This document shows, piece by piece, positions 15,856 to 51,628 of a DNA stretch of 64,000 nt. Each line of letters begins with the position of its first letter. Within the stretch, counting starts at the first letter, position 1. Source of the stretch: Dehalococcoidia bacterium (GTDB lineage Bacteria > Chloroflexota > Dehalococcoidia > SM23-28-2 > RBG-16-64-32); assembly GCA_963665775.2 (NCBI GenBank), contig CAXXTF010000002.1, forward strand, positions 1,408,001-1,472,000, written 5' to 3'. Both the position numbers and the translations under genes were made by a program. The notes under the pieces were generated by a model, which worked only from the letters and a program-made list of their open reading frames with translations, had not been told where the DNA came from and did no database searches.

Positions 15856-15930
15856 GGGCCTGTAGCTCAGCGGTAGAGCTCCGGACTTTTAATCCGGGAG
15901 TCGTGGGTTCGAATCCCACCGGGCCCTCCA
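15856..15930 (+). tRNA. tRNA-Lys(UUU)
   Basis: Acceptor stem GGGCCTG/CGGGCCC, D arm GCTC/GAGC, anticodon arm CCGGA-CTTTTAA-TCCGG, GTTCGAATC T loop, encoded CCA. Confidence 0.95.
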
Positions 15931-16305
15931 CACTTAGATGTAAAGAGCCGGCCGGCGCGAATCTGGTATCTGGCCTCTAGACTCCCGGAGTGGATATCCG
16001 GGACTCTATGTGAGGTACTCTTGGTTTTTCGCATTCTTCTCCTTTGAAGCTATGGAACCTAGATGGTGTACGGGACGTCGAAATTCAGATGGGGCGTAGC
16101 GGGGTGCATTGACAGCTCAAGGGAACAGGAGTGAGATGTCGCCGAAGGGGAGGCTGTCGATCATGGCCTCGGGAGAGAGCCCACCCCGCCCCGAGGCGAA
16201 AACTCTCGGACGGGTCGTGTCATGCGGTCGGTAGCAGACATGACAACCTGGATCGAGGAGCTGAAGCGGAGTGAGTACGAAGCGCCAACATAGCTGGGAT
16301 AGATA

Positions 16306-17082
16306 ATGAAACGCGGCTTTGTCCTGGCCATCATCGCGGGAGCGATACTGGCGGTGACCGCCATCGCGTGTGGGGGCGGAGATGGAGACGATGCTGCCGC
16401 AAGCCCGACATCTACTCCGACGCCAGCTGCGACAGGCGAGGCAACTTCGACTCCAGCGCGTACCGCTACGCCAGCACCGACCCCGTCTCAGACGCCAGAT
16501 TCGCAGGACGCTCAGACGGATATTCGAGCGGAGGATCAGGCCCTGGCTGACAGCGTAGTACTGAAATTATCGGATTTTGCGACTGGTTGACGGGCCGATG
16601 AGAGCGACGATGAAGACGACGATGAGAATGGGTGTGGTCAGCCGGATTACTCTGCCCTGACGATTACTGGAAGGGCGGACTCGCCGACCTTCACGCGGGG
16701 TTCGGTGGCAAGTGTCTCTTCCACCGCAGTGGTTTACACATCGCAAGATGATGCGATTAGCGCCTATCAATTGTTTGAAGGGGCCGTTAATCAGGAAATA
16801 GGCGATTGCTTGGCCGAAACACTCGAAGACACGGACGGGATAAAGGTAATCGACATCTCGGCTGGAAGGTTGTCATTTCCCAGTTTTGGTGATCGCTCGG
16901 CTGCCTATCAGATTGCGATCGAATATGAATCCGAAGGGCTGACGCCAACATTCTATGTTGACATAGTAGTTCTTCAAGACGGCCGCGCACTTGCCGCCCT
17001 GATCTATTTAGACCTCCTTACCCCTTTTTCCGACTCAGAGAAGGAACGCCTAACCGAGATAGTCGCGGGCCGCATGCAATAA
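16306..17082 (+). pseudogene. Pro/Thr-linker lipoprotein interrupted by an in-frame TGA at 16588-16590
   Basis: Lipobox AIAC; frame continues LSDFATG*RADESDDED into ORF 16705-17082. Confidence 0.75.
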
Positions 17083-17086
17083 CGAC

Positions 17087-17854
17087 ATGAACTACCTTGG
17101 ACGATCGAGGATCTCAAGCATGGGGAGTATGAAGAGGCGCCATATCAGGCATAGAGGGAAGCCATGCAGCATTGCCCCGGTCCTCATCGGGGGAGCGATA
17201 TTGGCCCTGTCCGCCATCGCTTGCGGAGGCGAAGGCGGGGGAGGTGCCACTGCAAGCCCAACGGATAGTCCAGCCCCAACAGCCCAGGTAACCGCGACCG
17301 CGGCGCCCACTGCTTCCCCAACATCGACGCCCAGCCCGACACCTACCCAAACGCCAGTCCCGACTCCCTCACCCACGCCGACTCCTACCCCAGCGCCAGA
17401 TGGCAGCTCTAGGGCCAAAGCTGTTGCTGCCGGCGGAACTCTAATCCGGCCGGATGGCTATGAGATCCGAGTGCTCGAGTCGAATTGGGACGCTTGGCCC
17501 CTGGTGCTTGCGGAGAACCAGTTCAATGATCCACCGGCCGAAGGCAATCGCATGGTACTAGTGAGAGTACGCGTTTCCGTAGGGGTGGAAGCACTCGATG
17601 ACGACGAAGATACCATCATGGTTCGAGACTCCGATTTTTCCCTTGTCGGCTCCAACAATGAGGTTTATACGCCGTTCTTTAATTACTGCGGCGTGATACC
17701 CGATGAGCTAAGGGGCGAACTGTTCCCGCCGGCTGGTGCTGAAGGCAACGTTTGCTTTGAGGTTCCAGCCGACGAGACTGACTTCATCCTGATTCATGAG
17801 CCATTCTTAGAGTTCTTCGCCGATCGATGGTACTTGGAATTGGGAAGCCCATGA
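17087..17854 (+). CDS. Lipoprotein with Pro/Thr linker and DUF4352-like beta-sandwich
   Basis: AIAC lipobox; ENQFNDPPAEG, DFSLVGS, GELFP..GAEGNVCFEVP; start may be 17129. Confidence 0.7.
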   Translation: MNYLGRSRISSMGSMKRRHIRHRGKPCSIAPVLIGGAILALSAIACGGEGGGGATASPTDSPAPTAQVTATAAPTASPTSTPSPTPTQTPVPTPSPTPTPTPAPDGSSRAKAVAAGGTLIRPDGYEIRVLESNWDAWPLVLAENQFNDPPAEGNRMVLVRVRVSVGVEALDDDEDTIMVRDSDFSLVGSNNEVYTPFFNYCGVIPDELRGELFPPAGAEGNVCFEVPADETDFILIHEPFLEFFADRWYLELGSP

Positions 17855-18094
17855 TGGCCCCCTTGTGGACAGCGCATAACTGCACGCAAGAAGTGGGGGT
17901 CCAGGAGGGTCAGGGCCGGCCATCGCTATCTCGGCACCTCCCTGGCGAGGAGGGAGAAGATGAGCGGTGTAAGGCGGCGTTTGCCACCGATGTACGCCGG
18001 GAGCGCTTTGAAGAGTTTGTGCATTCCGATTATCATTAGTCTCAAAAGGGAACATCCTATGTGTCTCGAAGTACTTAGAGAGGGAGTCAGGGCC

Positions 18095-18628
18095 ATGGCG
18101 CGGTGGCAAGTCCGCCTCGCGGACTCAGCCTATGAAGATGTGATAAACGGTAAGATTGAAAAGGCTGAGGCTTGGGCTGCTACGGAGGCGGAGACAACTC
18201 CCAACTTCGGCGGCTACTGGGACACCCTGCATTCCGAATCTGGCAAAACTGGCCCGCACGAGTGGAACTTCTGGGTCGGGTACGTGGCAACTGGTAATCG
18301 GGAAGCTGAACAACTCACTCCCCAGTGGGACTTCAGTCGCCTGGACGATCGCCACGTGCCCTCTGTCCGTGTCGAGTGCAATAGTCTGAGCTATGCGGAC
18401 GAGACATTTCTTCGGTTCGCAGATGATCTAAAGGCCGATTCTGAATCCGGCGCGCTTGTCGTGGAATCGACAGGCATCCCACTTGCATGCTTCCTGCGGA
18501 AACCGAGTCTTAAGGAAAAGCGTGTCTTGGGACGATACGTTCGGCCGACGATAATAGTAGGTAGGGAGACGGACGGCCACGAAGTTCTCGCGCAGATCAG
18601 TGCGTCAACCCCCTTCAGATACGGATGA
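18095..18628 (+). CDS. Hypothetical protein, 3' end probably clipped by an IS end
   Basis: SD GGGAG before ATG 18095; stop codon lies inside the IS right-end motif. Confidence 0.5.
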   Translation: MARWQVRLADSAYEDVINGKIEKAEAWAATEAETTPNFGGYWDTLHSESGKTGPHEWNFWVGYVATGNREAEQLTPQWDFSRLDDRHVPSVRVECNSLSYADETFLRFADDLKADSESGALVVESTGIPLACFLRKPSLKEKRVLGRYVRPTIIVGRETDGHEVLAQISASTPFRYG

Positions 18629-18644
18629 CATTTTGCCCCCTACA
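18614..18644 (+). repeat. Isolated IS right end, identical to 20035-20065
   Basis: TTCAGATACGGATGACATTTTGCCCCCTACA occurs at both sites. Confidence 0.8.
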
Positions 18645-18788
18645 ATTCTAGTCAGCCATGAGGTCCTTCGGCACCCGAATCTGACCCGCCGTCTTGCGAA
18701 TCGAAAGCATGAGCGGTCCTCCCAGGAGGGCGCCAGCGGGTGTGCGACGGGCGACCTGAGCGATCAACCTACGAGACGTGAAGAATGG

Positions 18789-19682
18789 ATGGGATCCTTG
18801 AGACGGTTCCTGAACAGACCTAGACTCGTACGTCGAAGATGGCTGGTGCCGGGCCTCGGCGTGAGTCTGGCAACCCTCCTCGTGGCGGCCGCCTGCGGCG
18901 GCGATAGCGATGACGAAGCCGACAGCACACCATCGCCACAGGCGACGTCTCCGTCGCAGGCTACGCCTGACGGAGGCAACGGCGATGAAAGTCCCAGTGG
19001 CGGCGAGACACCCGGCGGCGAATCGCCGGGCACGGATGTCAGCAGCGGTGAGCCAAGGCCCGTAATGACGGCCCCAGCCGTGCAATCGTCTTCTTCGCCG
19101 GCGCCGTCCAGTGTCACCTTCATCTGCACGCTCGTGATCGGTTTCAGCCAGACACGACAATGGTACGAACCGGCCGGCGCCTTCGAGTCCAACGTCGGAA
19201 CAGACCATTGGCAACTACTCTGGGCTGGGGGAGCGGGAGTAGACAGGTGGAGGAACGCTAATTACGAAGGCTGGGCGAGAGAGGTCGCTTCGCCATGCTC
19301 TCAGAATAAGGACTCGCCCGACCGTGTAATTCTAACCATTAGCGGCCCATATGGATCGAACGAGGAAGCTTGGGCACAGGCTATTAGCGAAACGGCGGCA
19401 CTTGTAAGAACGAATTTCCCGTCCGTTCTCCAGATAATCCTTCAGTCCATCGTCGGCGGCCCTGACCACATGGACTGCCCAATTCCTGGTGGGCAGCGGG
19501 TTCGCGCCTCGTGGCAGCATGCTCATATCGACAATGCGATTCTTGCTGTCGTTGACGGAGACATGATCGCAGGCTCTTCGCCCGAAGTTCGAAGCTGCGA
19601 TGACTATGCGGACGAAATCGGGCATCTTACACCCGAGGGCGCGGTTGCGGCTGGCCACGCAATTGCGGAGTTTTACCGGTAA
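18789..19682 (+). CDS. Lipoprotein with low-complexity linker and possible SGNH-like hydrolase domain
   Basis: Arg-rich N-terminus, lipobox AAAC, LVIGFSQT and terminal DEIGHLTPEG resemble SGNH blocks I and V. Confidence 0.6.
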   Translation: MGSLRRFLNRPRLVRRRWLVPGLGVSLATLLVAAACGGDSDDEADSTPSPQATSPSQATPDGGNGDESPSGGETPGGESPGTDVSSGEPRPVMTAPAVQSSSSPAPSSVTFICTLVIGFSQTRQWYEPAGAFESNVGTDHWQLLWAGGAGVDRWRNANYEGWAREVASPCSQNKDSPDRVILTISGPYGSNEEAWAQAISETAALVRTNFPSVLQIILQSIVGGPDHMDCPIPGGQRVRASWQHAHIDNAILAVVDGDMIAGSSPEVRSCDDYADEIGHLTPEGAVAAGHAIAEFYR

Positions 19683-19707
19683 GCAAGGAAGGCACTCATG
19701 CAAAAGT

Positions 19708-20542
19708 TGTGGGGGTGCAAAACTGATCCGCCAGCGTTCTGGGGTCACGCGGCCTGCCTTTCGTATTCGTAGAGCAGGCCGCCAAGCACAGGCCGGGCGA
19801 TGATCCGGCCGCCTGAAACCAGCGCAAGGTGGACAGCTCCGGAGGGCGGATCGAGCTCCAGCGCACGATGTGGCCACACGGCAGGCAGCGGGATGTACCC
19901 TAAGTGACTGTGGGAGGGCAATACTAAACCGGGCCACCTGCTCGGGCTAGCCGGCCGCTGGTCGGCCTGATCGTTGCCCGGCCGGTGCTGGGGGGATTAC
20001 ATCACGAGTACGAATGGCTGGCTGCTTGACCTGTTTCAGATACGGATGACATTTTGCCCCCCTACAGCAGTTCGCCTTGGATGCGGACGGCGCCCCAGCG
20101 GGGGTTGTCGCCAGCCAACCTCTGGATGAGATCTCTCACCTCCGCTGAGATTCGCGGCCGGCCGGGAGGGCGGCGGCTACGCCATGTCCAGTAGTGTCGC
20201 CAGGCCGTGCGATGCCAGCGCACAATGGTGTCGGGTTGGACTACGACAACGGCTGACCGCCAGCGCGACCAGCGGCGGGAGAGCCAGCACCAGAGCAGGC
20301 GGTCCGCCGGTTCAAGGCGCGGGCGCCGGGCCGAGCGCATCAGGATGGCGAGCTGATGGCGCAGGGCCAGGTTCTCAAGTTCGACGTCCTGCCACGCTCG
20401 CAAGGCGTTACGTATAGTGCCGATGAGCAGAGAGAGGTAGATATTCATTGGCCAGATCCTCCTTGTAGCGAACGCTACGCGAGAGCTGGCCTCCGATCCA
20501 CCATCCGCGTACTCAGATACGAATTAGTTTTGCACCCCCACA
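19708..20542 (-). mobile_element. Internally deleted DDE (rve, IS3/IS481-like) insertion sequence
   Basis: 17 bp perfect terminal IR TGTGGGGGTGCAAAACT; N-terminus ENLALRHQL...VQPDTIVRWHR...NPRWGAVRIQGEL; C-terminal remnants PHRALELDPP and PVLGGLLYEYERQAA*. Confidence 0.85.
19909..20065 (+). mobile_element. 157 bp miniature derivative nested in the IS remnant
   Basis: TGTGGGAGGGCAA left end, transposase tail PVLGGLHHEYEWLAA*, right end ...TTTTGCCCCCTACA. Confidence 0.7.
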
Positions 20543-20591
20543 GGTCGCTTTCCATATATAACGAGAGGACATCGCAAGGCACGGGCAGCCC

Positions 20592-20641
20592 CCGGACTTT
20601 TAATCCAGGAGTCGTGGGTTCGAATCCCACCGGGCCCTCCA
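20592..20641 (+). repeat. tRNA-Lys 3' duplicate (att site)
   Basis: 50 bp copy of the tRNA 3' part with one mismatch; 5' part absent. Confidence 0.9.
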
Positions 20642-20749
20642 TCACTTAGATGTAAAGGGCTGGCCCCCCGTGGTCCTTGCCAATGATGGCTGGACTCCCG
20701 GAGTTAGAAACTGGGATTCTGGGACCCGAATCCCATCAGGTACTATGAC

Positions 20750-20924
20750 TGTGGGGTGCCATTATTCCATCCGGTGCCTGAGCTGCCAACCACTGGACCT
20801 CCTGCTTGCCAGGCAGGGAATCTAGTTGGACACTCTCCGCAGGTGCTCCTGGCCATCTAAGACCCAGATCGCCTGGCTGGCCGATCCGAATCTCCAGATA
20901 CGGATGAGGTTTTGGCACCATACA
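20750..20924. mobile_element. 175 bp MITE-like element of the same IS family
   Basis: Imperfect IRs TGTGGGGTGCCA...CATCCG and CGGATG...TGGCACCATACA; contains CAGATACGGATG. Confidence 0.65.
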
Positions 20925-20960
20925 GTCGCTGTGGACAAGCAACCTAGGCACCAGGATCTG

Positions 20961-21006
20961 GCTCCCCCGCAGGGGGCTGTGGGCTCGATCCCCATCGCCC
21001 GCTCCA
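20961..21006 (+). repeat. Degenerate tRNA-Gly 3' fragment
   Basis: GTGGGCTCGATCCCCATCGCCCGCTCCA nearly identical to copies ending at 31932 and 51628. Confidence 0.75.
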
Positions 21007-21071
21007 AACCCGGGCGAGGAAGCGCCGGCTCGAACAAGGGTATGTGTAGGCGGCATTCATGTTTCGGCCCT

Positions 21072-21413
21072 TTATAGAGCCGCCTCTCCCTTCTCGTCGG
21101 TGCGTACGCTCATCACCTCGATCACATCACTGATGAATATTATGCCATCGCCTATTTCTCCGGTGCGGGCAGCACCTTTGATGACCTGGCACACTCTGTC
21201 GATGTCGGCATCTCGCACCACCAAGGTCAGCCTGGTCTTGGGCAGCATATCTATGACCACCTCCGCTCCAGTCCTGCCGGTGCGCACAATACCTCTCTCA
21301 GAGCCCCGGCCAACCACTGAGACTACGTTGAGCCCCGCGAAGCCTGCCTCGGCCAAGGCAGCCGTCACCGCCGTCACCTTCTCCACGCGGATGATTGCCT
21401 CTATCTTTTTCAT
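21072..21413 (-). CDS. glnB: P-II nitrogen regulatory protein
   Basis: MKKIEAIIR, GRG, DMLPK, ARTGEIGDG.IF; T-loop lacks the uridylylated Tyr. Confidence 0.9.
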   Translation of the reverse strand: MKKIEAIIRVEKVTAVTAALAEAGFAGLNVVSVVGRGSERGIVRTGRTGAEVVIDMLPKTRLTLVVRDADIDRVCQVIKGAARTGEIGDGIIFISDVIEVMSVRTDEKGEAAL

Positions 21414-21524
21414 CGGTCATCTCCTCTCTGATCTCTCTCTCTATCGTAATTCCGGCCCGCTACGATATGGGTTCGTGATGTACACGACTCAAATTGAACA
21501 GCGTAGTTTACATTGCGACTGAAA

Positions 21525-21896
21525 CTACTCCAACGCAGCGCGGGCCTTTTCCAGGTCATCGGCGCCGAAGGCGATCCGTGAGTGCGTGGCCTCGTAAATC
21601 AGCTGTATGTTGACCCCAGCATAGGCCATTCGTCGGGCGAGCTTTGCGATTTCACCAGGTCGATCCGGGACGTCTACGACCAACATCGCACGTTCGCCGC
21701 TAACCTGAAACCCAGCCCCTTCGAGGGCACGTCGCGCTCCCGCTGCGTCCTCCACTAAAATATGGTCGACGGCCCCCACCTCTACTGGGTATCCAAACAT
21801 CCCATCGATGTTGACGCCAGCGTTCCCCAGGGCTTCCAGGATGCCGGCAAGTGAGCCCGGTTGATCCGGCACGAGAAGCATAAGATCCGTAGCCAT
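21525..21896 (-). CDS. Tandem ACT-domain amino-acid-binding protein
   Basis: PDQPGSLA..L..LGNAGVNI and PDRPGEIA..A.AGVNI; SD GGAGG before ATG 21896. Confidence 0.85.
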   Translation of the reverse strand: MATDLMLLVPDQPGSLAGILEALGNAGVNIDGMFGYPVEVGAVDHILVEDAAGARRALEGAGFQVSGERAMLVVDVPDRPGEIAKLARRMAYAGVNIQLIYEATHSRIAFGADDLEKARAALE

Positions 21897-22205
21897 GATT
21901 TTCCTCCTTCGCGTAGTGACTAAACGTCTGCCGCACATTATACCGTGCCACTTAGCTGTGGGGTGGAGCGAGGCCCTAAACAGAGTCGTACACGATAGGA
22001 CTCCGGCTGAAGCACGAGCTAACGAGCGGCGGCCTAACTACGTTCGTGCCGCTGATGTTTCCTTCTTCACATTGAGAGGCAAACCCCCATCTGGTGGTCG
22101 TACTTTTTTACCCCTGCTTATTGTCTAGACCACGCGGGGACCACTGCCTGACCAGAACACGGTGGACGCGCCCTTGGTCTAGACTGGTGTGAAATATTGC
22201 CCATT

Positions 22206-22258
22206 TGTAGGGCGTTAGCCTGGCTCACTTAGATACGGATGAGCATTGAGCCCCCACA
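22206..22258. mobile_element. 53 bp fused IS-end remnant
   Basis: TGTAGGG...AGATACGGATGAGCATTGAGCCCCCACA. Confidence 0.5.
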
Positions 22259-22275
22259 CCGCTTTGTCAGGGGGA

Positions 22276-23610
22276 TTACAGTATCGGCAAATAGCGCTTC
22301 AGTTCGTAGTCGGTTACGTGGCGGCGGAAGTTGCTCCACTCGATCTTCTTGTTGGTGAGCAGGCTCTCGAAGAGGTGGTCGCCCAGGCAGCGGCGCAACA
22401 GCTCGCTCCCCTCGGCGTACTCGATCGCCTCCCAGAGGCTGCCCGGCAAGTGGCTGATGCCATCCTGCTTGCGTTCCTCATCTGTCATCGCGAAGACGTT
22501 CCTCTCCACCGGCTGCGGGCAGGGATACTCCTTCTCGATTCCCTCTAGGCCGGCGGCGAGCATGGCGGCGAAGGCCAGGTACGGGTTGCAAGCCGGGTCC
22601 GGGGCTCTGTATTCGATGCGGGTGGCGCTCTCCTTGCCGGGCTTGTACTCAGGTATGCGGACCAGATCGGAGCGATTGCGGCGGGCCCAGGAGAGATATA
22701 CCGGGGCCTCAAATCCGGGGACGAGGCGCTTGTAGGAGTTGACCCACTGGTTGGTGACCAGGGTGATCTCCTTGGCGTGGTGGAGGATGCCGCCGACGTA
22801 GCTGCGGGCGAGGGCGGACAGGTGGTAGGGATCGTCGGCATCGAAGAAGGCGTTGCGCTCGCCCTTGAACAGGGACTGGTGAACGTGCATGCCGGAGCCG
22901 TTCTGGTCGGCCAGGGGCTTCGGCATGAAGGTAGCGTAAACGTTGTTCTTGAGGGCCACCTCTTTGACGACGAGCCGATAGGTCATGGTGTTATCGGCCA
23001 TTGTGAGGGCGTCTGTGTAGCGGAGATCGATCTCGTGCTGGGAGGGGGCGACCTCGTGATGAGAGGCCACGACAGCGATGCCCAACTCTTCCAGGGTGAG
23101 AACGGTCTCCCGGCGCAGATCGGTGGCGGCGTCCAGGGGGGTGAGGTCAAAGTAGCCGCCGGTATCCAGGAGCTCCGTGCTGTCTTGCCTAGCGAAATAG
23201 AAGTACTCCAGCTCTGGGCCTACGTAGAAGGTATATCCTAGGTCTGCGGCGCGCTGGAGGCTGCAGCGTAGGACGAAGCGGGGGTCGCCTTGGAAGGGGC
23301 TTCCGTCCGGGTGAAGGATGTCACAGAACATGCGGGCAACGCTGCGCTCCTGGGGGCGCCAGGGGAGGATGGCGAAGGTAGATGGGTCCGGCATCGCCAT
23401 CATGTCGGACTCGTCGATGCGGGCGAAGCCTTCGATCGAGGAGCCGTCGAAGCCGGTGCCTTCCTCGAGGGCCTGGGGCAGCTCCTCCACCGTAATGGCG
23501 ACGCTCTTGAGGAAGCCGAGGATATCGGTAAACCAGAGGCGGATGAACTTGACGTCGTGCTCTTTGGCCATCTGTAGCACGTAATCGATGCTCTGGCGGC
23601 GGTTATTCAT
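22276..23610 (-). CDS. glnA: Glutamine synthetase type I, alpha-like
   Basis: [57 protein letters not shown]. Confidence 0.95.
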   Translation of the reverse strand: MNNRRQSIDYVLQMAKEHDVKFIRLWFTDILGFLKSVAITVEELPQALEEGTGFDGSSIEGFARIDESDMMAMPDPSTFAILPWRPQERSVARMFCDILHPDGSPFQGDPRFVLRCSLQRAADLGYTFYVGPELEYFYFARQDSTELLDTGGYFDLTPLDAATDLRRETVLTLEELGIAVVASHHEVAPSQHEIDLRYTDALTMADNTMTYRLVVKEVALKNNVYATFMPKPLADQNGSGMHVHQSLFKGERNAFFDADDPYHLSALARSYVGGILHHAKEITLVTNQWVNSYKRLVPGFEAPVYLSWARRNRSDLVRIPEYKPGKESATRIEYRAPDPACNPYLAFAAMLAAGLEGIEKEYPCPQPVERNVFAMTDEERKQDGISHLPGSLWEAIEYAEGSELLRRCLGDHLFESLLTNKKIEWSNFRRHVTDYELKRYLPIL

Positions 23611-23723
23611 CTGGTTCAATCCCCTGGCTGGCCCCGATCTTGATCAAACCATAAGCAGGAGCCTGCACCCTCGGGAGCAACGCGCCCGGGCCGGCCGGCT
23701 CACGGAGGCCGGGCGAGGCGGCC

Positions 23724-25547: not shown

Positions 25548-25562
25548 GTTTCGGTTCGCTCC

Positions 25563-38123: not shown

Positions 38124-38154
38124 AGGCGTTCACATCTCATCCCTTTAGGAGTCG

Positions 38155-42688: not shown

Positions 42689-42707
42689 GCCATCGTGCCC
42701 GGATGGA

Positions 42708-44362
42708 CTAGTAGTACAGCCAGCGAATGCCAGCACCGGACCTGCACTTTTCCGCCAGCAAGCAGTACACCTCAGCATGGGCGTAATGGTCCGCCTTACG
42801 ATTGTCGACCCACCTTGCCACCCAGTTTCCCGAGCTGTCCTGCTCCAGGGTTCGCTTGGGTGTCAACATTTCCCGATAGTACTCACCGAAGCCCTCCTTG
42901 ACCCGGCCACCCAGGTGGCGAGCATTGGCCGGCAACAACGCTCTTCCCTCTCGGAAGCGCTGATACATCTCGTCCAGGGCTTCGAGGCGGTTCACATGAT
43001 ATACGTTGGGGTCATCCCCCTTACTCCCTTCCCAGTCATGGCCGGATTCGTGGCGGTCGTATCGCGCCAACCAGGCCAGGCTTCCATGACGGAGGGCAAA
43101 CAGCCGCGCTAGGTGTGCCTCTGGCTGAGAATCGACGACGCAGCGTCTGATATTGAAGCGGTCCAGTAGCCCCTCCAGTTCGTCGAAGGAATCGAGCTCC
43201 CCGGTGAACCAGAGTCGAGGAGTACCGCCGTCATCTCCACCGGTAACTGATTCTCGGACTACGACATGGAGCTTTGTGCCGACGTCGACGCCAATGTCGC
43301 ATACTTCCCCGGCGTACTCGTCCAAAGTGTAATCATGGCGACAACGATCCAGGATATCGATGCTGGTGCCACCGCCGGGCGGCGCGAAGGCCTCCCCAAG
43401 GTCGCTATTTTGAAACTCCAGCAGGGCCGAAGGGGTGGTCGCCTCGCTGGCCTCGATCATCTCCCGAATGTTGGCCCACGGGCTGTACAGGCGGCTCAAA
43501 TGATAACCGTGGACGAGCCCGTTGCCCGGCGCCTGGGCCTGCCAGCGCCCTTGGGCCAAGACGTCTATGTGATGCCGACAGGAGCGGCAGACCACCAGGG
43601 CTTGCTCTAGGTCGACATTCTCCTCCCAGGTGAGCGGCTGTTCCAGCCCGCAGCCAGGGCAGGAAAGGAGGTAGCGGCGCTGATCGGACTGCAGGTAGAG
43701 ACCGTTGACGCCGGCCTCAGGTAGCCGCGGCGTGGAAGCGATACGAAGTAGACCCCGCTGGCTGGAGCTGAGCCGCTTCTTGGCCAACTCCAACACCCCT
43801 TCGCCCATCTGGTCGAATTCGTGTCCAAGATCACGAGGTCAGCGTCGACGCTGGCGATCTGGCGCCGGCTATCAGCGCCCCGCAGGTAGATGTACCCGGG
43901 CCCCAGGTGCTTCAATCTCTTGCTGTCCGCTCCTTTTCGTCGGGGTGGTTCAGGCTGCAGGCGGGTTCTGAGATAGGGGTTATCTTGAAGGGCCTGGTCG
44001 AAGCGGGCCTGAGCGAAATCTTCCATCATGTTCTGGGTCGGCATCAGGAAGAGGACGTGGCCCCGACCAGCGTGGCCTGTGTCAGCTGCCCACAGGGTCA
44101 GATTCACGAGGAGCTCAGTGGCCCCGACCTGGGCGGATTTCTGGATCACGACCAGGGGATGATCGTCGCGGGCGATGTCGGCTAGGGCGGGGAGGTGGAC
44201 CAATGGTCTGCCGCCGACGCTCCGATGGGCCATCGCCCAGGCGTAAGGGTCACCGGGGCTCCTTCTGGCCTTCTCCATCCAGAGCGCCCTCCGTGTATTC
44301 GAGGAGACGGTCGAGCTCCTCATCGCTGAGTCCTGCGAGTCTGGCGTTGATTCCGATTTCAC
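42708..44362 (-). pseudogene. Phage terminase large subunit (lambda GpA type), 2 bp duplication frameshift at 43821-43824
   Basis: KSAQVGATE Walker A; VILD[ac]EFDQM Walker B; ASTP; CPGC/CRSC; nuclease GVDVG and ADHY; true start may be 44278. Confidence 0.88.
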
Positions 44363-44765
44363 CGTTAACCTCCTGTCTGTCAGTAGGCTCGCCCCTGGCT
44401 AACCGCTCTAGCTTCGCGCCTTCTACGACAGCGCGGATCGCCGCGTCGGCGGTGGCATCGTCGGCGCCCATCGCCGCCAGCCATTCCGCCCCCTTCTGTT
44501 GTAGCAGCAAGGCCTCTTTGGCCTGGCGCTCGTACATTTCCTTGAGCGCCGCGATCCTGGCCTCATGTTCCGCCTGCTTTGCTTCCTGCTCCATCGCGGC
44601 TATCTGGTGCTGCCAGTGATGGAGGCGGGACCATTCATAAATGGTGCGGAGGTTAGGCGCCCGACCATCGGCCTCAAGCTCAGCGTGGAGCTGCTCCAGG
44701 GTGCACGCTCCTCCCATACGCCAGTAGAGCTCGAAGGCCTCACGGTGCCTGGTTTTCTCAACCAT
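44250..44765 (-). CDS. Putative terminase small subunit
   Basis: N-terminal HTH (AFELY...RTIYEWS...W), coiled coil, position directly upstream of the large subunit. Confidence 0.65.
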   Translation of the reverse strand: MVEKTRHREAFELYWRMGGACTLEQLHAELEADGRAPNLRTIYEWSRLHHWQHQIAAMEQEAKQAEHEARIAALKEMYERQAKEALLLQQKGAEWLAAMGADDATADAAIRAVVEGAKLERLARGEPTDRQEVNGEIGINARLAGLSDEELDRLLEYTEGALDGEGQKEPR

Positions 44766-45435
44766 CGCAGCCCTCGCGATACCGTCGGCAGATGAGGCCC
44801 AGGGCCCGACCGCGCCGGTTGGCGCCGTTGAGGTCTGCCATCGCGATGCTGATCGCTTGCTCGACGGCCTCCTCGTCCTCGGGCAGGACGGCGAAGGACA
44901 CCAGCCGTGGCGCTTCCTTCCGCTGGTGCTCGGCGGCGGCCGTCAAGTCTGCCAGCAGTGTCTCCGTGTCTAGATCGAGCAGCTGGATGGTCTCCGCGAT
45001 GGCTCGGCCATCCTCAGGTAGCAGCGCCGCTAGGTCCTCGGGCGGTAGTAGTCCGCTGAGCTCGGCGAGCAGCTCGGCTCGGCTGGCCGGCACATCCTCG
45101 CCCTCCAATCTGTTCAACGTTGCTAGGAGGATCAGAGCGGTAGCGTCGTCGCAGGGCCAGGGGAAGCAGACGACCTCGCCGTGCCCGAGACGGCGGAGGG
45201 CCTCCAGTCTTTGGTGGCCATCGAGGAGCTGGTAGGCCTCTTCCATGCTGGGATGGGGTCGCACGACCAGCGGCGGGTAGCGCCCCTCCCGAGCGATGTT
45301 CCGCGCGAGCTTCTCAAGGCGCTCCTTGGGCATAATATTGGCGTTGGTGGGGTGCGGATGGAGGTCTGCCAGTGGCACGCGGATCAGGCGCTCCTTAACG
45401 ACCGGCGACGACGAGGAATTCTTTGTTCGTGGCAT
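44758..45435 (-). CDS. ParB/Srx N-terminal domain protein
   Basis: LHPHPTNAN, PLVVR, LLDGHQRLEALRRLG, LNRLEG. Confidence 0.88.
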   Translation of the reverse strand: MPRTKNSSSSPVVKERLIRVPLADLHPHPTNANIMPKERLEKLARNIAREGRYPPLVVRPHPSMEEAYQLLDGHQRLEALRRLGHGEVVCFPWPCDDATALILLATLNRLEGEDVPASRAELLAELSGLLPPEDLAALLPEDGRAIAETIQLLDLDTETLLADLTAAAEHQRKEAPRLVSFAVLPEDEEAVEQAISIAMADLNGANRRGRALGLICRRYREGCDG

Positions 45436-46396
45436 TCTTCACCTCGGATGCGATAGAACTGAGATGTCGATAGGGGACGGATAGGGCTCTGAGTACCGGG
45501 TGATGATGCCTGACCCGGGCCACCAGATCTTCCAGGGTGATAGCAGGTCCGCCGTAGGAAAGAAGGAGCAACGGTATATGGCGAGCCGCATCGAGCAGCC
45601 GGTCAAGAGTCGGTGGCGCGCTGCGGCCTACCTCGTCGCCCAGCAGGGCGTCCAAGACAGCGTACTCCTTAGCATATCCCGTTGTGCCAGGGTATGGTGG
45701 GTCTAAGTAAAGGACTTCAGCTTCTACGCCGCCAATGACTTCGACAGCATCTCCTTTGCGGGACTCGCCGCGGCCGCCGAAGACGCCGACATTTACCACC
45801 TGCGCCACCGTCCAGACACCCTCCGGCGTGAGCATCCTCTCCGCCCTAAGGTAGTGGCCCAAACGGCGAGGGCTGACCCGGTCATAGTCGCCAGTGGCCG
45901 CCGCCCGGGCGTCGGTACCCGTTAGCATGCTCATAGACTGGCAGCGGAGAGCCACTTTGATGATGAGAAGTAGTAGTAGGCTTCGCACGGGCTCCGACCG
46001 GCGATTTGCCCGCGCCACAGCGCGGTCCAGCCAGGCGGCCTGAAATGCAGTGAAGACCGATGGAATGTGCTGGGCCGCGACCTGCGGATAGGAGTCGTCC
46101 GGTGACCGGAACAGGTCGAGCACGTCGTCCAACCTCAGCTGGCACGTGGAGTTCGCAATTAGGGCCCGGGCAACGATTGCCGCCCGCTCGGCGGCGTCGG
46201 AGGCGATGACGTGGAAACCCTGCGCCTTGGCGAAGAGAGCAATAGAGCCGCCACCGCAGAAGGGGTCGAGGAGGGTGTTATTCCGCCATTGTCCTCGGCG
46301 AAGATGCTCCCCAATGAGGGCGAAGATGAGGGGGCAGAGCCGCCTCTTCCCGCCAAGGTAGGAAGGTAACGCTCGAAAGAATTCTGGACCGGTCAC
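45395..46396 (-). CDS. D12-class DNA adenine methyltransferase
   Basis: YLGGKRRL, DPFCGGG, LYLDPPY, terminal EFL. Confidence 0.88.
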   Translation of the reverse strand: MTGPEFFRALPSYLGGKRRLCPLIFALIGEHLRRGQWRNNTLLDPFCGGGSIALFAKAQGFHVIASDAAERAAIVARALIANSTCQLRLDDVLDLFRSPDDSYPQVAAQHIPSVFTAFQAAWLDRAVARANRRSEPVRSLLLLLIIKVALRCQSMSMLTGTDARAAATGDYDRVSPRRLGHYLRAERMLTPEGVWTVAQVVNVGVFGGRGESRKGDAVEVIGGVEAEVLYLDPPYPGTTGYAKEYAVLDALLGDEVGRSAPPTLDRLLDAARHIPLLLLSYGGPAITLEDLVARVRHHHPVLRALSVPYRHLSSIASEVKNATNKEFLVVAGR

Positions 46397-46472
46397 GCGT
46401 CCAGCGTCTCATCGGATTAGGCTCCTGTCACGACCCGAAAAACCGCCGCGGTGGTTAAGCGGGCCGTGTTGC

Positions 46473-47150
46473 TCAAATCTTCCTGATGCCTGCCCTGCGT
46501 CGCAGTGTCTGTACGCGCTTCCGGTTGCGTGGCCCATTCTGGTAATAGTGCCCATCATCGGGCCATAGACCAGCCTGGCGACCGGCGTTGAAGATCTCCA
46601 CGTCGCTCCAATCCGGATGCTGCCTCATGGCTTCGATAACCCTTGCACGCTTCTCTTCCAGTGAACCCGGTGGCGGCCCTCCCTCATTTAACTCTCTTCC
46701 CAGGGCTTCCTGCTGCTGAAAGCTGATCAGTCCCCACAGCTCCCGATACTGGTCCGCCGTCAGGTCCGTGGCGTTCACCCAGACCTGGCCCAGATTCATC
46801 CCCTGCCTGACGCTCTGCACGTCGTCATCGCTCAAGAGGACCCTCACCGCTCTATCCGGAAACCCCGGAATACCATGTAGACGGAGAGGCAAGTGCTGGC
46901 CGGCCTCGGGAAACACCCCTGCGATCACGAGATTCAGGACCAACGCCTCTCCCAGGGTGTTCTTCAGCCCGGGCTCACAGTCGATGAGCAATTGCGCTGC
47001 GCGCTTACACAGTTCGAGAATCTGCCTTGCCAGGGACTCCGCTTCGGGATCGTGTTCACTCGCATCCCGCAGACCTTCGGCAGCGTGACGCGCCTCAGCC
47101 ATCGCTGCCATTACCTCAGGGTCTCTAAATGCGGCCCCTGCGACCTCCAA
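46473..47150 (-). CDS. Hypothetical protein with basic, possibly DNA-binding C-terminus
   Basis: 225 aa ORF co-oriented with the terminase module; start uncertain. Confidence 0.55.
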   Translation of the reverse strand: MEVAGAAFRDPEVMAAMAEARHAAEGLRDASEHDPEAESLARQILELCKRAAQLLIDCEPGLKNTLGEALVLNLVIAGVFPEAGQHLPLRLHGIPGFPDRAVRVLLSDDDVQSVRQGMNLGQVWVNATDLTADQYRELWGLISFQQQEALGRELNEGGPPPGSLEEKRARVIEAMRQHPDWSDVEIFNAGRQAGLWPDDGHYYQNGPRNRKRVQTLRRRAGIRKI

Positions 47151-47289
47151 GATATTGTCCAGCTGAAGCCGAAACGTGGGCGAGGCCTCCGGTTACCGCC
47201 TCCGATCGGCTGACATGTCTAGCAGGGCATCCTACCGTGTAAGTGCTGAATCATTATGGGCATCAAGTCGCTGAGCCCTGAAGGAGGTG

Positions 47290-47613
47290 CTAAGGAACCG
47301 AACCACCGCGGTCAGAGTTCTGGACCATGATGGCCTCGTACGTAGTCAAATGCGGAGGACCTTCCAGGAGACCTGCCAGTGATCCCTGCCGGTGTCCGGC
47401 CGCAAACGCCTCGCTTTCGGTCCATGCGGTGAAAGACTCCCGGTCCTCCCAAGTGCTGTGGCTTATGTACTCGCCCGGCGTGTCCCCCCGAAGCAGGGCA
47501 AACTGGACGAATCCTGGAACGTCTTTGAGGTAGGATCTCCGCTCTCTCCACGCCTGCTCAAAGTCCTGCTCCCGGCCCCCGCCGACGTTGAAGCGATTCA
47601 TAGCGATGAACAT
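47290..47613 (-). CDS. Antibiotic biosynthesis monooxygenase (IsdG/HmoA-like) protein
   Basis: MFIAMNRF, FE..W..R.S.L..VPGF, W...E.F.AWTESEAF..GH. Confidence 0.88.
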   Translation of the reverse strand: MFIAMNRFNVGGGREQDFEQAWRERRSYLKDVPGFVQFALLRGDTPGEYISHSTWEDRESFTAWTESEAFAAGHRQGSLAGLLEGPPHLTTYEAIMVQNSDRGGSVP

Positions 47614-47915
47614 TGGACTTCCTCCAGGCTGACGTAAGCGGCGGTTTTCATTTGGGCAGATGCGTCACCAACTCCACGCTGACTTTCGACTAGACACTTC
47701 CTTATCTTGCTCAAGAATACACCGTTCGGACCGGATAGAGCTTCTCTGTTCTCAATTCACGGCCAGGCGAAATGCGGGCTCTGCTATCAATGACGCCTGA
47801 CGCATCTATAATTGGCTTTGATCATTCGGCCCTGAGCTCCAGGGAGCGCTAGCGTGGGACGAGCGCATATAAGTTCGCCCTGTAGGGTAGAATATTCCTT
47901 GTTGAAGGAGGCCCT

Positions 47916-49112
47916 GTGCTGACTCTGGACGGAGTGAAGATTCTCGACATGTCGCAGTATACGCCCGGGCACCACGGTACGATGCTGCTTGGTGATATGG
48001 GTGCGGACATCCTGAAGATAGAGGCTCCTACGGTGACCATCAGAGGGGGGCTGTCCTCCCGCCGCGAGCCTCCGCCCGAAGAGCGCCAGCGATCGCAGGC
48101 CTTCGACGCCCTGGGCCGTAACAAGCGGAGCATCGCTATCAACCTGAAGGACGAGCGGGGTAGGGAGATCTTCTACAAGCTCGCACGGGAGGCAGACGTG
48201 GTGTTGGAAGGGTTTCGGCCGGGCGTTGTCAAGCGTCTGGGCGTGGACTACCAGACGATATCGAAAATCAACCAGCGGATCGTTTACGCCTCGCTTAGCG
48301 GCTACGGCCAGGACGGACCCTACAGCCAAATGGCGGGGCACGACATCAACTACATAGCCCAGAGCGGCGCCCTGGGCGTGATCGGCCCGGCGCCCGATGA
48401 GCCGCCGGTCATACCGATGAATTTTCTGGCGGACCTCGCCGGCGGCGGCACCATGGCCGCCCTGGGGATCGTAGCCGCGCTGCTCAATCGCGAGCGAAGC
48501 GGCCGCGGCCAGTTCATCGACATCAGCATGGCCGAGGGCGCCATGCAGCTGACCTCGTCCATGCTCAGCAGCTACCTGGGGTCCGGGCGGGTACCGGTGC
48601 GGGACCGGGAATCGCACAGCGGCAGCGTCGTCTACTACAGCGTGTATCAATGCAAGGATGGCAAGTGGATCAGCATCGGCTGTATTGAGCCGTACTTTTA
48701 TGAGAGCTTCTGCCGCGAACTGGGGAGGGAGGACTGGCTCCCTGATCAGCACGCGGATCCGGGCAGGCAAGCCGAGATGATCGCCGCGGCCCGGGAGATC
48801 TTCCTGACACGCACCCGGGACGAGTGGCATGAAGCCCTGAACAGGCACGACCTGTGCGCCATGCGGATCCTGGCGATGGACGAGATGGCGGATGACCCCC
48901 ACGTCCGGGCACGGGGGATGATCATGGAGCTCCAGCACCCGAAGATTGGGCGCGTTAAACAGATGGGATCAGCGATCAAGTTCTCAGAGACGCCATCATC
49001 GTTCCGCTCCTTCGCTCCAGCTAGGGGAGAGCACACGGATGCGGTGCTAAAGGAGTTGGGATACGCTACAGATCAGGTCGCCGCTCTCCGTGACGATGGC
49101 GTCGTGGTATGA
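47916..49112 (+). CDS. Family III CoA-transferase (CaiB/BaiF, AMACR-like)
   Basis: GDMGADILKIE, RNKRSIAINLK, EGFRPGV, GHDINY, ADLAGG, GEHT. Confidence 0.92.
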   Translation: MLTLDGVKILDMSQYTPGHHGTMLLGDMGADILKIEAPTVTIRGGLSSRREPPPEERQRSQAFDALGRNKRSIAINLKDERGREIFYKLAREADVVLEGFRPGVVKRLGVDYQTISKINQRIVYASLSGYGQDGPYSQMAGHDINYIAQSGALGVIGPAPDEPPVIPMNFLADLAGGGTMAALGIVAALLNRERSGRGQFIDISMAEGAMQLTSSMLSSYLGSGRVPVRDRESHSGSVVYYSVYQCKDGKWISIGCIEPYFYESFCRELGREDWLPDQHADPGRQAEMIAAAREIFLTRTRDEWHEALNRHDLCAMRILAMDEMADDPHVRARGMIMELQHPKIGRVKQMGSAIKFSETPSSFRSFAPARGEHTDAVLKELGYATDQVAALRDDGVVV

Positions 49113-49513
49113 CGGAGGTTGTGGGCCGCGGGTGCAAGCCATCAACGAATTTCGGACCTATCGGCCCGCTTTCTAGATATTACCTGAGCTCGCCCCACCA
49201 CTACCGGGCCCCGGCCCATTCGGAAGGGCGGGAGACTTGATTGATGCGGCGGCGGGCATAATGAATTGAAGGATTTGCGAGAGGGCTCGTTGATGGGTAG
49301 ACGCGACCATTCCAAGGGTAAACGATTTCTGGCGGGGCGCCGAGGAAAGCCTGGCGATGATCGTCTCCGATTTCTCGGCGCGTACCTGTAAAGGTTGACA
49401 GGGACGAACACCGGCGCCCCAGGTAGGGCTGTTATACCATTGTCACAAGCGCGGAAAATGGGCAGCTAACGTTTGGCGCTGGCTTCCACGAGATGCTCTA
49501 AAGGAGGCTTGTC

Positions 49514-49882
49514 CTGTCTACGCTCAATTACCGCAATCTCGGCCGTTCCGGCCTTAAGGTCTCTCCGCTCTGCCTGGGCGCCATGGACTTCGGCAATCAG
49601 CGCTTCGGCTGCGACGAGGAGACCACGCTCAATATCGCCCGCGACTATCTGGACGCTGGGCATAACTTCATAGACACTGCCAATCGCTACGCTGACACCC
49701 GGTCGGAGGTAATCGTTGGCAAGGCAGTGAAGGGACGGAGGGACAGTGTGGTCGTAGCTACGAAGGCTGCCTATCCGCTCGGCCCCGGCCCTTTCGAAGG
49801 TGGGACGAGCCGCAAGGCCCTGTTGACTGCTGTCGAGGAGACCTGGCGGGCTATCGTGCGGGATGTTCTCTTGATAGTCTAG
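49514..49882 (+). pseudogene. Truncated aldo/keto reductase
   Basis: YRNLGRSGLKVSPLCLGAM, NFIDTANRY, VVATK; ends after about 120 codons; SD present but start codon is CTG. Confidence 0.85.
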
Positions 49883-49887
49883 AGACT

Positions 49888-50742
49888 ATGGAAGACGGGC
49901 AGCGGAGGCTGGAACAGAAACTCCGAATCGAACTGATTCAGGACGGCTCTCCACGTGCGTTCCTGGCCGCCTACAACCAATTTCACCAACATGTTAACAG
50001 CCATGGTATGTGGGGCAAGCCCACATTCGGTCACCTATACCGGAGCAGGATTGATCTGATTGACACACTCCTGCTTCGTTTGATTCCGCCCCATTCCTCT
50101 GTGCTCGAGTTAGGAATCGGTGATGGAGTTTTCGCCTCAGCGTGCGCGAGCCAAAAGAGTAACGTAGTGGGCATAGACATCTCAGACATCGCCCTAAGGG
50201 TTGCGAGAGGCTTGCATGCGGATGGGGCTCAATTTCACGTCCTTCAAGGAGATGCTCGATTTCTTAGCTTCTTGGACGAATCCTTCCAGTATGTTATAAG
50301 CAGGGACCTCATAGAGCACCTGCCAGAGATAGATGTGGCAGCCCATCTCAGGGAGGTAAAGAGAGTGTTACAGCCTGACGGAATATATCTCCTCTGGACT
50401 CCGCCTCCCTGGCTCGGGCACTCTCTAGGACTTCACCTTAAGGAATATACGGCGAAACAAGTCCTCCACGAGCTTGATAAGGAGGGGTTCGAGGCGAAAA
50501 TAATTCCGCTGCAGCTCAGAATGTTAGGCCTCGCTCATTCACTTGCACGGGATTCATTGGCACTGAAGGCCTTCTTGCGACTAGAGACGGTAACGGTCCG
50601 GCTTGGTATGTCCAAGCTCATTGAGAAGCTACCTGTCCGCTTCAGATGGGCGCTCCTACCTTCCGCATGTGTCGTTGCCACCAAGAGGAGTTCATCGTGC
50701 CCTGCTCTCCCTGTCGCACGAATTATGCGAGGGTCGTCGTGA
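49888..50742 (+). CDS. Class I SAM-dependent methyltransferase
   Basis: VLELGIGDG, GIDIS, LIEHL, RVLQPDG; lower GC than host genes. Confidence 0.85.
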   Translation: MEDGQRRLEQKLRIELIQDGSPRAFLAAYNQFHQHVNSHGMWGKPTFGHLYRSRIDLIDTLLLRLIPPHSSVLELGIGDGVFASACASQKSNVVGIDISDIALRVARGLHADGAQFHVLQGDARFLSFLDESFQYVISRDLIEHLPEIDVAAHLREVKRVLQPDGIYLLWTPPPWLGHSLGLHLKEYTAKQVLHELDKEGFEAKIIPLQLRMLGLAHSLARDSLALKAFLRLETVTVRLGMSKLIEKLPVRFRWALLPSACVVATKRSSSCPALPVARIMRGSS

Positions 50743-51582
50743 TGGATCACTGGTCAGCAGGGCAGAGGCACATGCATCGAGTGCCTACACCTCAAGTTCG
50801 CTTTTACGCAGAGCGTTGCCGATCTTGAATACGTCGGAGGTGCCTGAGGAGACAATGGAGCGGATCAACGAAGTGAGCGAGCCGTAGGTCAGATACCCGC
50901 ACAACCGTGCTTCCATCGCACGCTCTGCACCGTCCTCGTGAGCAGCCCGTAGAGGGTCTGCATGGCGCCTGGTCTGCTGGCCCGCAGCCCTCCACATGTG
51001 GTTGTTAACCGATCCTGATTCCTGTGCCCGTAGCCCAATCTACAGCGGCTGTCCGGCTCGGTCTTGAGCCACTACCCATTGGGATTGGGGCCGGATGCCA
51101 CTACCTTGACACGATATCCCAGGGCGCCTCTGACGGATGCCACCGGGAGGACGCGGAATGCCTGAGTACGTAGTCGAGGCGTCCCAGGGATCGGGTAGGT
51201 CGAGAGGCCTTAGTGTCCAACGGCTCACCCCGAGCAGAAATAGTCAGCGCTGACAGCCATGTACGGGGCCCACGCAACCTCGCGCGGGCCCCGTACATGA
51301 CGTCGCCTTACCAGGCTGGGCAGGGGCATATTCGGCGGGCAACTTGACTGATTGGGCGGTGGGAGTGATGAATGGCACCAAAGTCGCGACGGCTCTGAGA
51401 AGTTGACGCGACGATGCAAGCTGTAAACAAGATAAGCGGCATGAGCGGTCCGCGGCAGGTCCTAGACTAAGTTTCAGTCGGTTATTCAGAGAACCGTTGT
51501 CAGCCTGCGTATTCCCTGCTGTTTACCTGCGGTTTTCGAATCTGGCGCCTTAGCAATTGACCTGCCCGGCGCAACCAGTGTT

Positions 51583-51628
51583 CTTCCCAAGCAGAGGGCC
51601 GTGGGTTCGATCCCCATCGCCCGCTCCA
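51583..51628 (+). repeat. tRNA-Gly(CCC) 3' duplicate (att site)
   Basis: CTTCCCAAGCAGAGGGCCGTGGGTTCGATCCCCATCGCCCGCTCCA, preceded by the GCCTTAGCAATT motif. Confidence 0.85.

Follow-up and report, generated by a model that had tools for sequence, protein, structure and literature searches.

Tandem islands at tRNA genes (tDNAs) are already well known. In the parts of the Islander report drawn on here, 125 tandems of two or more islands, and only 4 of three or more, are counted among 3919 islands; such arrays arise through repeated use of one site and consist of an intact tDNA and co-oriented 3′ fragments marking the island ends, with a tyrosine integrase inside (PMC4383910). The subject of this report is a locus in the genome of a Dehalococcoidia bacterium (two contigs, C1 and C2, 2.35 Mb). 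Positions 15856-51628 of the window, that is, the 64,000-nucleotide (nt) stretch C2:1408001-1472000, make up 36 kb in which integrated elements, now decayed, stand in tandem at tRNA-Lys(UUU). The array is like the tDNA arrays of that report in its layout. It is unlike them in that fragments of two tRNAs, Lys and Gly, alternate, one cognate gene lies 1.05 Mb away, and one member has no integrase. The Islander filters, as given there, ask for a fragment co-oriented with its tDNA and an island span of 2-200 kb, and they would reject the Gly fragments of the window and the orphan Lys cores (PMC4383910).

A second point of comparison is the bi- and tripartite integrative and conjugative elements (ICEs) of Mesorhizobium and Bradyrhizobium. 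In the excerpts used here, these are one entity with at least two attP for different attB; integration puts attP head-to-head with the second attB, a second recombination inverts a large chromosome segment, and the parts then lie at distant loci, each flanked by atts of different systems (PMC5882170, PMC9174649). Phage-ICE tandems are also on record in the portion of the literature cited (PMC13651849). The present locus resembles polypartite ICEs, so far as those excerpts describe them, in topology: the window has a Lys head and a Gly tail, and a second locus, C2:341-371 kb, has a Gly head and a Lys tail. The array is not an ICE, and the likeness is in topology only, because no conjugation family (relaxase, type IV secretion) was found by Pfam in 56 open reading frames (ORFs) of the window or in 47 ORFs of C2:330-380 kb. 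The 56 ORFs are those of window positions 13-58 kb, 19 of which were also compared with PHROGs. No directionality factor was identified, no search having been aimed at such factors. The parts here, unlike those of polypartite ICEs, are small (10-30 kb) and eroded by insertion sequences (ISs), and the second core lies just 122-311 nt from the first.

The attachment (att) cores were compared base by base with the tRNA-Lys(UUU) or tRNA-Gly(CCC) gene. The array reads as follows:

15856-15930 (+): K0, intact tRNA-Lys(UUU), head of the array (ARAGORN; Rfam tRNA, 74.7 bits)
15931-16010 (+): the ext block of K0 (families D12 and D15; alignment of seven copies)
15931-20591 (+): E1, a 4.7-kb element between K0 and K1 (Pfam, PHROGs, BLAST against the genome)
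20592-20641 (+): K1, Lys 3′ core, 49/50 identical; ext from 20642 to ~20725
20785-20926 (+): IS481-like end remnant in the K1-Ga spacer, 92% identical to C2:356169-356309
20953-21006 (+): Ga, diverged Gly(CCC) 3′ core, 46/54 identical, final 22 nt perfect
21007-31705: E2, with cargo at 21007-30443, then integrase, arm, and K2
30444-31457 (+): E2 integrase, a tyrosine recombinase of 337 aa (PF00589, 9.1e-39; SAM-like N-terminal domains; phrog_1)
31458-31705 (+): P arm of a Lys-type attP, 248 nt, with arm repeats (family D14)
31706-31752 (+): K2, Lys 3′ core, 47/47 identical; ext from 31753 to ~31850
31875-31932 (+): Gb, Gly(CCC) 3′ core of 58 nt, 55/58 identical, right 36 nt perfect
31933-51520: E_G, a 19.7-kb mosaic between Gb and Gc (Pfam, PHROGs, Rfam, IS6 ends)
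51521-51582 (+): orphan P arm of a Gly-type attP, with GCCTTAGCAATT at 51547-51558, 24 nt before Gc
51583-51628 (+): Gc, Gly(CCC) 3′ core, 46/46 identical to the tRNA-Gly at C2:371087-371161

K0 is the sole tRNA that ARAGORN finds in the window, and neither ARAGORN nor Rfam finds an intact tRNA-Gly there. A gathering-level Rfam search of the window gave the tRNA-Lys, two c-di-AMP riboswitches (13439-13589 and 33586-33725, minus strand; 90.6 and 86.5 bits), and no other match. Two direct-repeat families, D4 and D10, hold three Lys and three Gly 3′ copies, all on the plus strand. An earlier note on this DNA had listed one intact tRNA-Lys, two Lys and three Gly 3′ ends in the same orientation, and no intact tRNA-Gly, and it was right in every particular. 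It had also remarked that a Lys att is twice closely trailed by a Gly att, as is the case for K1 and Ga (gap of 311 nt) and for K2 and Gb (122 nt). ARAGORN, besides confirming the tRNA-Lys, located the matching intact tRNA-Gly(CCC) in a whole-genome search at C2:371087-371161, 1.05 Mb off. To judge by the alignments, matches of 46-58 nt at such identity are not due to chance.

All seven genomic Lys cores are followed by the ~80-nt block called ext, which together with the core of 47-50 nt gives a Lys repeat unit of ~130 nt. The ext block terminates in a small inverted repeat (…CCCGGAGT…ATCCGGG…), and the sequence past it is unique to each copy. E1 and E2 are bracketed by these units. The signature used by Islander, an intact tDNA with a co-oriented downstream 3′ fragment, is present for Lys (K0, K1, K2) and absent for Gly within the window, where the tRNA-Gly gene is missing. 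The genome-wide count is seven Lys and four Gly(CCC) cores. Lys cores outside the window are K3, K4, and K5 (C2:341615, 357100, and 359200, minus strand) and K6 (C1:818017, minus strand). A fourth Gly(CCC)-like 3′ fragment lies at C2:1396204-1396249 (+), ~11.8 kb ahead of the window; it has a different T arm (89% identity) and is 1.1 kb from a tRNA-Gly(GCC).

The distribution of mismatches in the Gly cores is informative. Those of Ga are restricted to the left 32 nt, and the three of Gb, at tRNA positions 26, 37, and 39, all fall within the left 22 nt. Such left-confined mismatches are as expected for cores that are element-derived to the left of a crossover. Gb, mismatched on the left and perfect on the right, is consistent with a hybrid whose left part was element-borne and whose right part stems from the tRNA gene. 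The terminal repeat motif of the IS481-like remnant stops 27 nt before Ga, so the original left flank of Ga is obscured.

The E2 integrase scores 133.4 bits with PF00589 (cut-off 27.1) and 33.1 bits with PF02899 (cut-off 22.3). A second integrase, at 41702-42688 within E_G, scores 111.9 and 32.2 bits and also matches the phrog_1 integrase; it is 51% identical to the first, so two integrase clades are present in the window. Tyrosine recombinases have the catalytic residues R, K, HxxR, H, and Y. LDTGxR, GKGNKQR, HRFRHT, LLGHS, and RRY stretches are found in all four full-length integrases of the genome (alignment, by eye), and the predicted catalytic residues are kept in all four. E2 has its integrase beside its own att, E1 has none, and the Gb-Gc segment has one at a distance from its Gly arm.

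The window has three exact copies of the 12-mer GCCTTAGCAATT. Two copies are in the arm before K2 (31496-31507 and 31680-31691, with a looser copy near 31600), and one is before Gc. The putative attP layout of the family is integrase, arm with GCCTTAGCAATT repeats, and tRNA 3′ core, and its members are predicted to target Lys or Gly tRNAs. The presence of the arm before K2 and Gc, as well as before Gly(UCC) cores of two other genomes (G025 and G064), bears out the earlier note's proposal of one integrase family for both tRNAs. A Lys-type arm also precedes K3 and K5. The DNA of the integrase-arm-core module (30371-31847) is 89% identical to the K5 module and 91% to the K3 module (BLAST), and the E2 integrase protein is 95% identical to the K3 copy and 92% to the K5 copy.

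The surroundings of the distant tRNA-Gly gene are the counterpart of the window. At C2:341-371 kb, three Lys cores form an array without a head, together with two further copies of the E2 integrase, and K3-K5 (minus strand) lie 11.8-29 kb from the sole cognate intact tRNA-Gly. Integrase and arm precede K3 and K5, and K4 (C2:357 kb) is preceded by an arm 90% identical to the right arm of E1, before K1 (BLAST). No Gly fragment was found near the tRNA-Gly gene; Gc, its sole perfect partner, is 1.09 Mb away. The probability that a Lys array without a head would by chance come to lie within ±12 kb of that tRNA in a 2.35-Mb genome is estimated at ~1%. Two arrays in opposite orientation 1.05 Mb apart, one with Lys head and Gly tail and the other with Gly head and Lys tail, make a reciprocal inversion the economical explanation.

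Two inverted IS6 copies, 99.4% identical, enclose the 965-bp segment that holds the tRNA-Gly gene:

C2:369401-370347 (minus): IS6 copy A
C2:371313-372259 (plus): IS6 copy B

Intramolecular replicative transposition by IS6-family elements inverts the intervening DNA. The 9-mer GACTGGACG borders the left end of copy A and the right end of copy B, and flank matching across all copies gave no target duplication at any other IS6 copy. The 9-mer shared by the two inverted, nearly identical copies indicates that the tRNA-Gly segment was flipped locally, which implies that the tRNA-Gly would have been co-oriented with K3-K5 before the flip; the basis of this orientation argument is a single 9-nt duplication. 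With the flip undone, tRNA-Gly is followed by 152 nt, then by an IS481-like end and IS6, and next by 8.8 kb of cargo with integrase, arm, and K5 behind it. From K5 the order goes on with an E1-like element and K4 and, past a 15-kb element that has an integrase and an arm, with K3.

A third decayed island region is found at C1:800-856 kb (loci L004-L006), with K6 and copies of IS6 and IS481-like elements. It includes an integrase C-terminal fragment with an arm (C1:837989-838625), 82-87% identical to those of E2, and an odd tRNA-like gene (C1:846875-846946; Gly(ccc) by ARAGORN; Rfam 30.3 bits against a gathering threshold of 29) that adjoins another integrase.

The explanation that we find moderately probable is tandem accretion at tRNA-Lys by one integrase family, with an element-borne Gly core, one tail-swapping inversion of ~1.05 Mb, and subsequent decay by ISs. 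It runs as follows. Lys-type elements would carry a fossil or captured diverged Gly core just beyond the Lys att. E_G would be an ordinary tRNA-Gly island, with Gc as its usual distal end. One recombination, either site-specific or via the 36-58 nt of shared sequence, would join the Gly core of an element with the tRNA-Gly locus, which has the opposite orientation; it would invert ~1.05 Mb and swap the distal parts, giving the window its Lys head and Gly tail and the other locus its Gly head and Lys tail. In an alternative order with an equal end state, E_G would first integrate into the element-borne core, and Gc would then recombine with the tRNA-Gly. Later activity of IS6, IS4-like, and IS481-like elements would have eroded the arms and deleted the integrase beside Gc. 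The order of integration and inversion is not decidable from sequence alone. Under either order, a Lys-type element must have carried a Gly core beside its Lys att, and Ga repeats the arrangement of a Gly core right after a Lys att block. At the distant locus the exchange point lies between the tRNA-Gly and K5, and in the window between K2 and Gc. The parts flanked by unlike atts are K2 to Gc and, with the IS6 flip undone, tRNA-Gly to K5.

The earlier note had seen in the Gly cores an element-borne second att that serves as a landing pad. The element-borne att is supported, since Gly cores follow the Lys att at Ga and Gb and mirror-image units are found in G025 and G064. Its use as a landing pad is possible and not required, because a prior tRNA-Gly island plus recombination of a Gly core with the tRNA-Gly gives an equal structure. 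The note's picture misses the reciprocal locus at C2:341-371 kb, which points to the ~1.05-Mb inversion.

Relatives provide further information. Among 65 genomes of the order, 19 have a member of the E2 integrase family (E <= 1e-40) and 15 have the second integrase (E <= 1e-50). Readable atts beside family members are Lys, Gly(CCC), and Gly(UCC) cores, and Arg for distant members. The tRNA-Lys(UUU) gene is an array hot spot in relatives such as G013, G025, G004, G027, and G006, and the tRNA-Gly(CCC) gene in relatives such as G007 and G013. In G025, a one-contig genome of another family, a tRNA-Gly(UCC) heads a ~105-kb stretch with three further Gly(UCC) cores. The arm motif precedes each of these three cores, and an integrase is just upstream of the arm at two. 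Three of the four Gly cores have a Lys-like core 160-190 nt behind them, and the far end is occupied by an intact, co-oriented tRNA-Lys(CUU). In G064, integrase, arm, Gly(UCC) core, and Lys core form one unit. In both genomes, the arm motif precedes Gly(UCC) cores next to homologous integrases, and the Gly(UCC)-then-Lys units are the mirror image of the window's Lys-then-Gly units. The recurrence of composite Lys/Gly att regions around this integrase family argues against a pure IS accident. The second core need not be a functional site and may instead be a flank that was captured or is a fossil. In G037, a complete genome, nine Lys 3′ cores occur in both orientations, tRNA-Gly(CCC) 5′ fragments (positions 1-38) are found at 504463, 508295, and 1643907, and a Gly 3′ fragment at 358175 is back-to-back with a tRNA-Lys copy, which suggests that similar exchanges may have taken place there.

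In locus L043 (G054:C257), a degenerate piece resembling a Gly anticodon arm lies ~50 nt after an intact tRNA-Gly(CCC). It runs straight into an integrase frame that starts at about residue 44 and shares 66% identity with the second integrase of the window. In L043, attP and integrase gene may overlap.

The contents of the elements are as follows. No ORF of E1 belongs to a Pfam or PHROG family, and none is an integrase. The right third of E1 (~18593-20540) consists of IS481-like remnants. Elements without an integrase that are mobilizable in cis (CIMEs) accrete site-specifically with ICEs. E1 and its relative at C2:357-359 kb are CIME-like: both are bracketed by att repeats, have no integrase and no ORF of a known family, share a conserved right arm, and sit beside integrase-bearing elements that use the same att. 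A motif of ~30 nt, TCAGATACGGATGAnnTTTTGCCCCC…CACA, occurs in this part of the window (e.g., at 18614, 20035, 20512, 20893, and 22228). It has 60 matches in the genome at <=2 mismatches, ~45 with full context, and resembles a terminal repeat as found in IS481/IS3-like elements. Solo ends account for many of the copies and cluster near att sites; the 900 nt after K4 hold four. Just upstream of the tRNA-Lys, the ORF at 14722-15696 has 12- and 18-nt tandem repeats rich in GAC/GCC codons (families D1 and D2) and matches no Pfam family.

The cargo of E2 includes an ACT-domain protein, two glnA genes, a P-II fragment, an ammonium transporter, an 895-aa PKD-domain protein, and a sortase-like ORF (Pfam). 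A block of 4735 bp (22277-27011), with both glnA genes, the P-II fragment, and amt, is 99.9% identical to C1:326433-331167, inverted (BLAST), and is thus a very recent segmental duplication of nitrogen-assimilation genes into the island. A repeat of ~115 nt with at least six further copies lies at 27080-27194, ~70 nt past the right edge of the block.

E_G begins with a PAC2-family gene, a c-di-AMP riboswitch, a TreT-like glycosyltransferase, a GYD-domain protein, a Kef-type antiporter, and MoeA and AsnC fragments. Its middle part comprises an IS6 element (38607-39553), an RlmI-like methyltransferase, the second integrase, and the large and then the small terminase gene. A ParB-like protein, a D12 methyltransferase, an ABM-domain protein, a CoA-transferase, an aldo-keto reductase fragment, and a methyltransferase complete the order. 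The riboswitch (33586-33725) is upstream of the PAC2-family gene (32059-33240), which has an 81% identical paralogue at C2:864415-865375. The assignment of the IS6 element rests on PF13610 (DDE_Tnp_IS240, 1.6e-41), and its ends are GGTTCTGTCAGA…TCTGACAGAACC. The remaining features of this part and of the region past Gc are:

41702-42688 (+): second integrase, abutting the truncated large terminase gene
42708-43808 (minus): truncated large terminase gene
44250-44765 (minus): small terminase gene
51818-53539 (+): IS4-like element of 1.72 kb with a DDE_Tnp_1_4 transposase, 190 nt after Gc

The IS4-like element has 17 near-full-length copies in the genome; 15 others are ~99.3% identical and one 88%. 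Contig C2 starts within a further, partial copy, and its break is probably due to this repeat. No integrase gene or remnant is found upstream of the Gc arm.

Several observations weigh against the account with the element-borne core and the inversion. The integrase of E_G is 9 kb from the Gly arm, and the att expected downstream of it is replaced by the truncated terminase gene. A Gly core follows only two of the seven Lys units, and among eight integrase-arm-Lys-core junctions in five genomes, K2 is the one junction with a Gly core downstream. The sequence past the Gly cores was searched for a conserved block, and there is none. The crossover could alternatively have taken place in two inverted IS6 copies, that of the window and copy A, which are 93% identical and whose flanks have no matching duplications. 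None of the contig joints listed is a true excision; they are paralogues from the other locus or conserved glnA/amt genes. G037 has three full-length tRNA-Lys(UUU)-like copies, which means that the K3-K5 array might once have had a head of its own. Finally, divergence is too great for the native flanks of either tRNA to be read from the relatives, and 51629 onward can be called only a candidate for the native tRNA-Gly flank.

Proteins flanking both tRNAs and the array end were compared for synteny in both search directions, and the native downstream flanks were not fixed; nor did one downstream protein searched in five genomes fix them. The only syntenic flank protein is a response regulator upstream of the tRNA-Lys in three of four relatives. 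A motif, GATACGATTTC, after the tRNA-Gly of relatives was considered as evidence of a gene pair and rejected; it is also upstream of the tRNA-Lys (G000 and several relatives) and was read as promoter-like. GC skew along both contigs is too noisy to reveal an inversion. No continuation of a gene broken by the window IS6 was found, and the window IS6 is a mosaic, the mosaic pattern of the IS6 copies being uninformative.

Pure accretion by way of landing pads, without any large inversion, is unlikely. Gly-type elements would have integrated serially into the Gly core of Lys elements, and the second Lys array would be unrelated and would have lost its head. Gb and Gc do bracket 19.7 kb, Gc has a canonical arm, Ga and Gb stand directly after Lys att blocks, composite Gly/Lys units are found in G025 and G064, and extra tRNA-Lys(UUU) copies exist in the family, as G037 shows. 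However, such accretion predicts the remainder of the Lys element (integrase, arm, and Lys core) after Gc, and what follows Gc is a 190-nt flank, the IS4-like element, and genes of higher GC. In addition, no integrase adjoins any Gly core, and the presence of a headless Lys array in matching orientation 12 kb from the cognate tRNA-Gly goes unexplained.

It is equally doubtful that separate Lys and Gly arrays were merely shuffled by IS or homologous recombination, through IS6, IS4-like, or integrase copies, with no second att ever carried and the Lys-Gly adjacencies as by-products of deletions. The genome offers ample material for such events: inverted IS6 copies lie in both arrays, neither with a target duplication of its own; the window IS6 is a mosaic; one of the 17 IS4-like copies is 190 nt from Gc; and an IS481-like end is 27 nt from Ga. 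Moreover, undoing an inversion between two IS6 copies gives a neat island of tRNA-Gly, IS6, 39554-51582, and Gc. Yet the flanks of the IS6 copies do not match crosswise, and 93% is a low identity for the two partners. Gb follows K2 at 122 nt with no IS remnant in the interval, and analogous composite units are found in other genera beside the same integrase family.

An ancestral pair of tRNA-Lys(UUU) and tRNA-Gly(CCC), duplicated with the att region and followed by decay of the Gly copies, is quite improbable. It gains some credit from the Lys att homology, which runs well past the tRNA, a captured flank in which a neighbor gene could be held, and from G025, where the co-oriented tRNA-Gly(UCC) and tRNA-Lys(CUU) at the ends of the ~105-kb island stretch may be former neighbors. 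However, none of the tRNA-Lys loci of 11 relatives has a tRNA-Gly within 1.5 kb on either side, so the native pair that the earlier note had named as an objection is not seen in these relatives. Examination of the Lys arrays in G013 and G025 gave no Gly core, nor was a Lys core found in the Gly(CCC) arrays in G007 and G013. Beyond ext, the K1-Ga and K2-Gb spacers share no homology; in Gb, the 5′ 17 nt of the tRNA are missing and unrelated sequence stands on the left; and five of the seven Lys units are without a Gly core.

Of the words sampled from 27300-37299, 90-97% are present in each of six public runs, one of which may be the window's own source. Contigs of four runs from three studies were compared over 15501-35500. 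In all four runs, contigs span Ga into the element on its right, and the contig of run X16 (20626-22333) covers the K1 3′ end, ext, spacer, and Ga, and continues into E2. An exact 30-mer from the left end of the Gb-Gc segment had 0 matches in the metagenome contigs, and the public contigs break inside the repeated cores, as is usual in short-read assemblies. An assembly artefact that joins repeats of two loci is extremely unlikely, for although the genome is repeat-rich, C2 starts inside an IS4-like copy, and K2-Gb is not spanned among the contigs listed, the cores of <=150 nt are far below the 1.7-kb IS copies that were resolved 17 times, each junction has unique flanks, and the local contigs (contigs, not long reads) agree with the assembly at Ga, against the misassembly that the earlier note had considered.

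Returning to the inversion with an element-borne Gly core, we can extend it to a bolder proposal, which we consider rather unlikely. Small, non-conjugative islands with adjacent Lys and Gly cores would act in a polypartite manner through recombination with both tRNA genes, with repeated and perhaps reversible inversion of ~45% of the 2.35-Mb genome and exchange of cargo between arrays. There are signs of such behavior in several genera, namely the composite units of G025 and G064 and the split tRNA-Gly halves of G037.

The assumption made by island finders, that a tRNA fragment is near its own gene and co-oriented with it, fails at this locus, and it does so for a traceable reason. If the locus is no more than a relic scrambled by ISs, it counts as an ordinary region of decayed islands. 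If it is true that second att cores link two tRNA hot spots, small islands, and not only the megabase symbiosis ICEs, can drive megabase inversions, and the locus is a concrete case outside the rhizobia that can be tested by polymerase chain reaction. It would also follow that fossil att cores record switches of integrase target, and that islands shuffle cargo between arrays, here including a fresh copy of the glnA/P-II/amt block.

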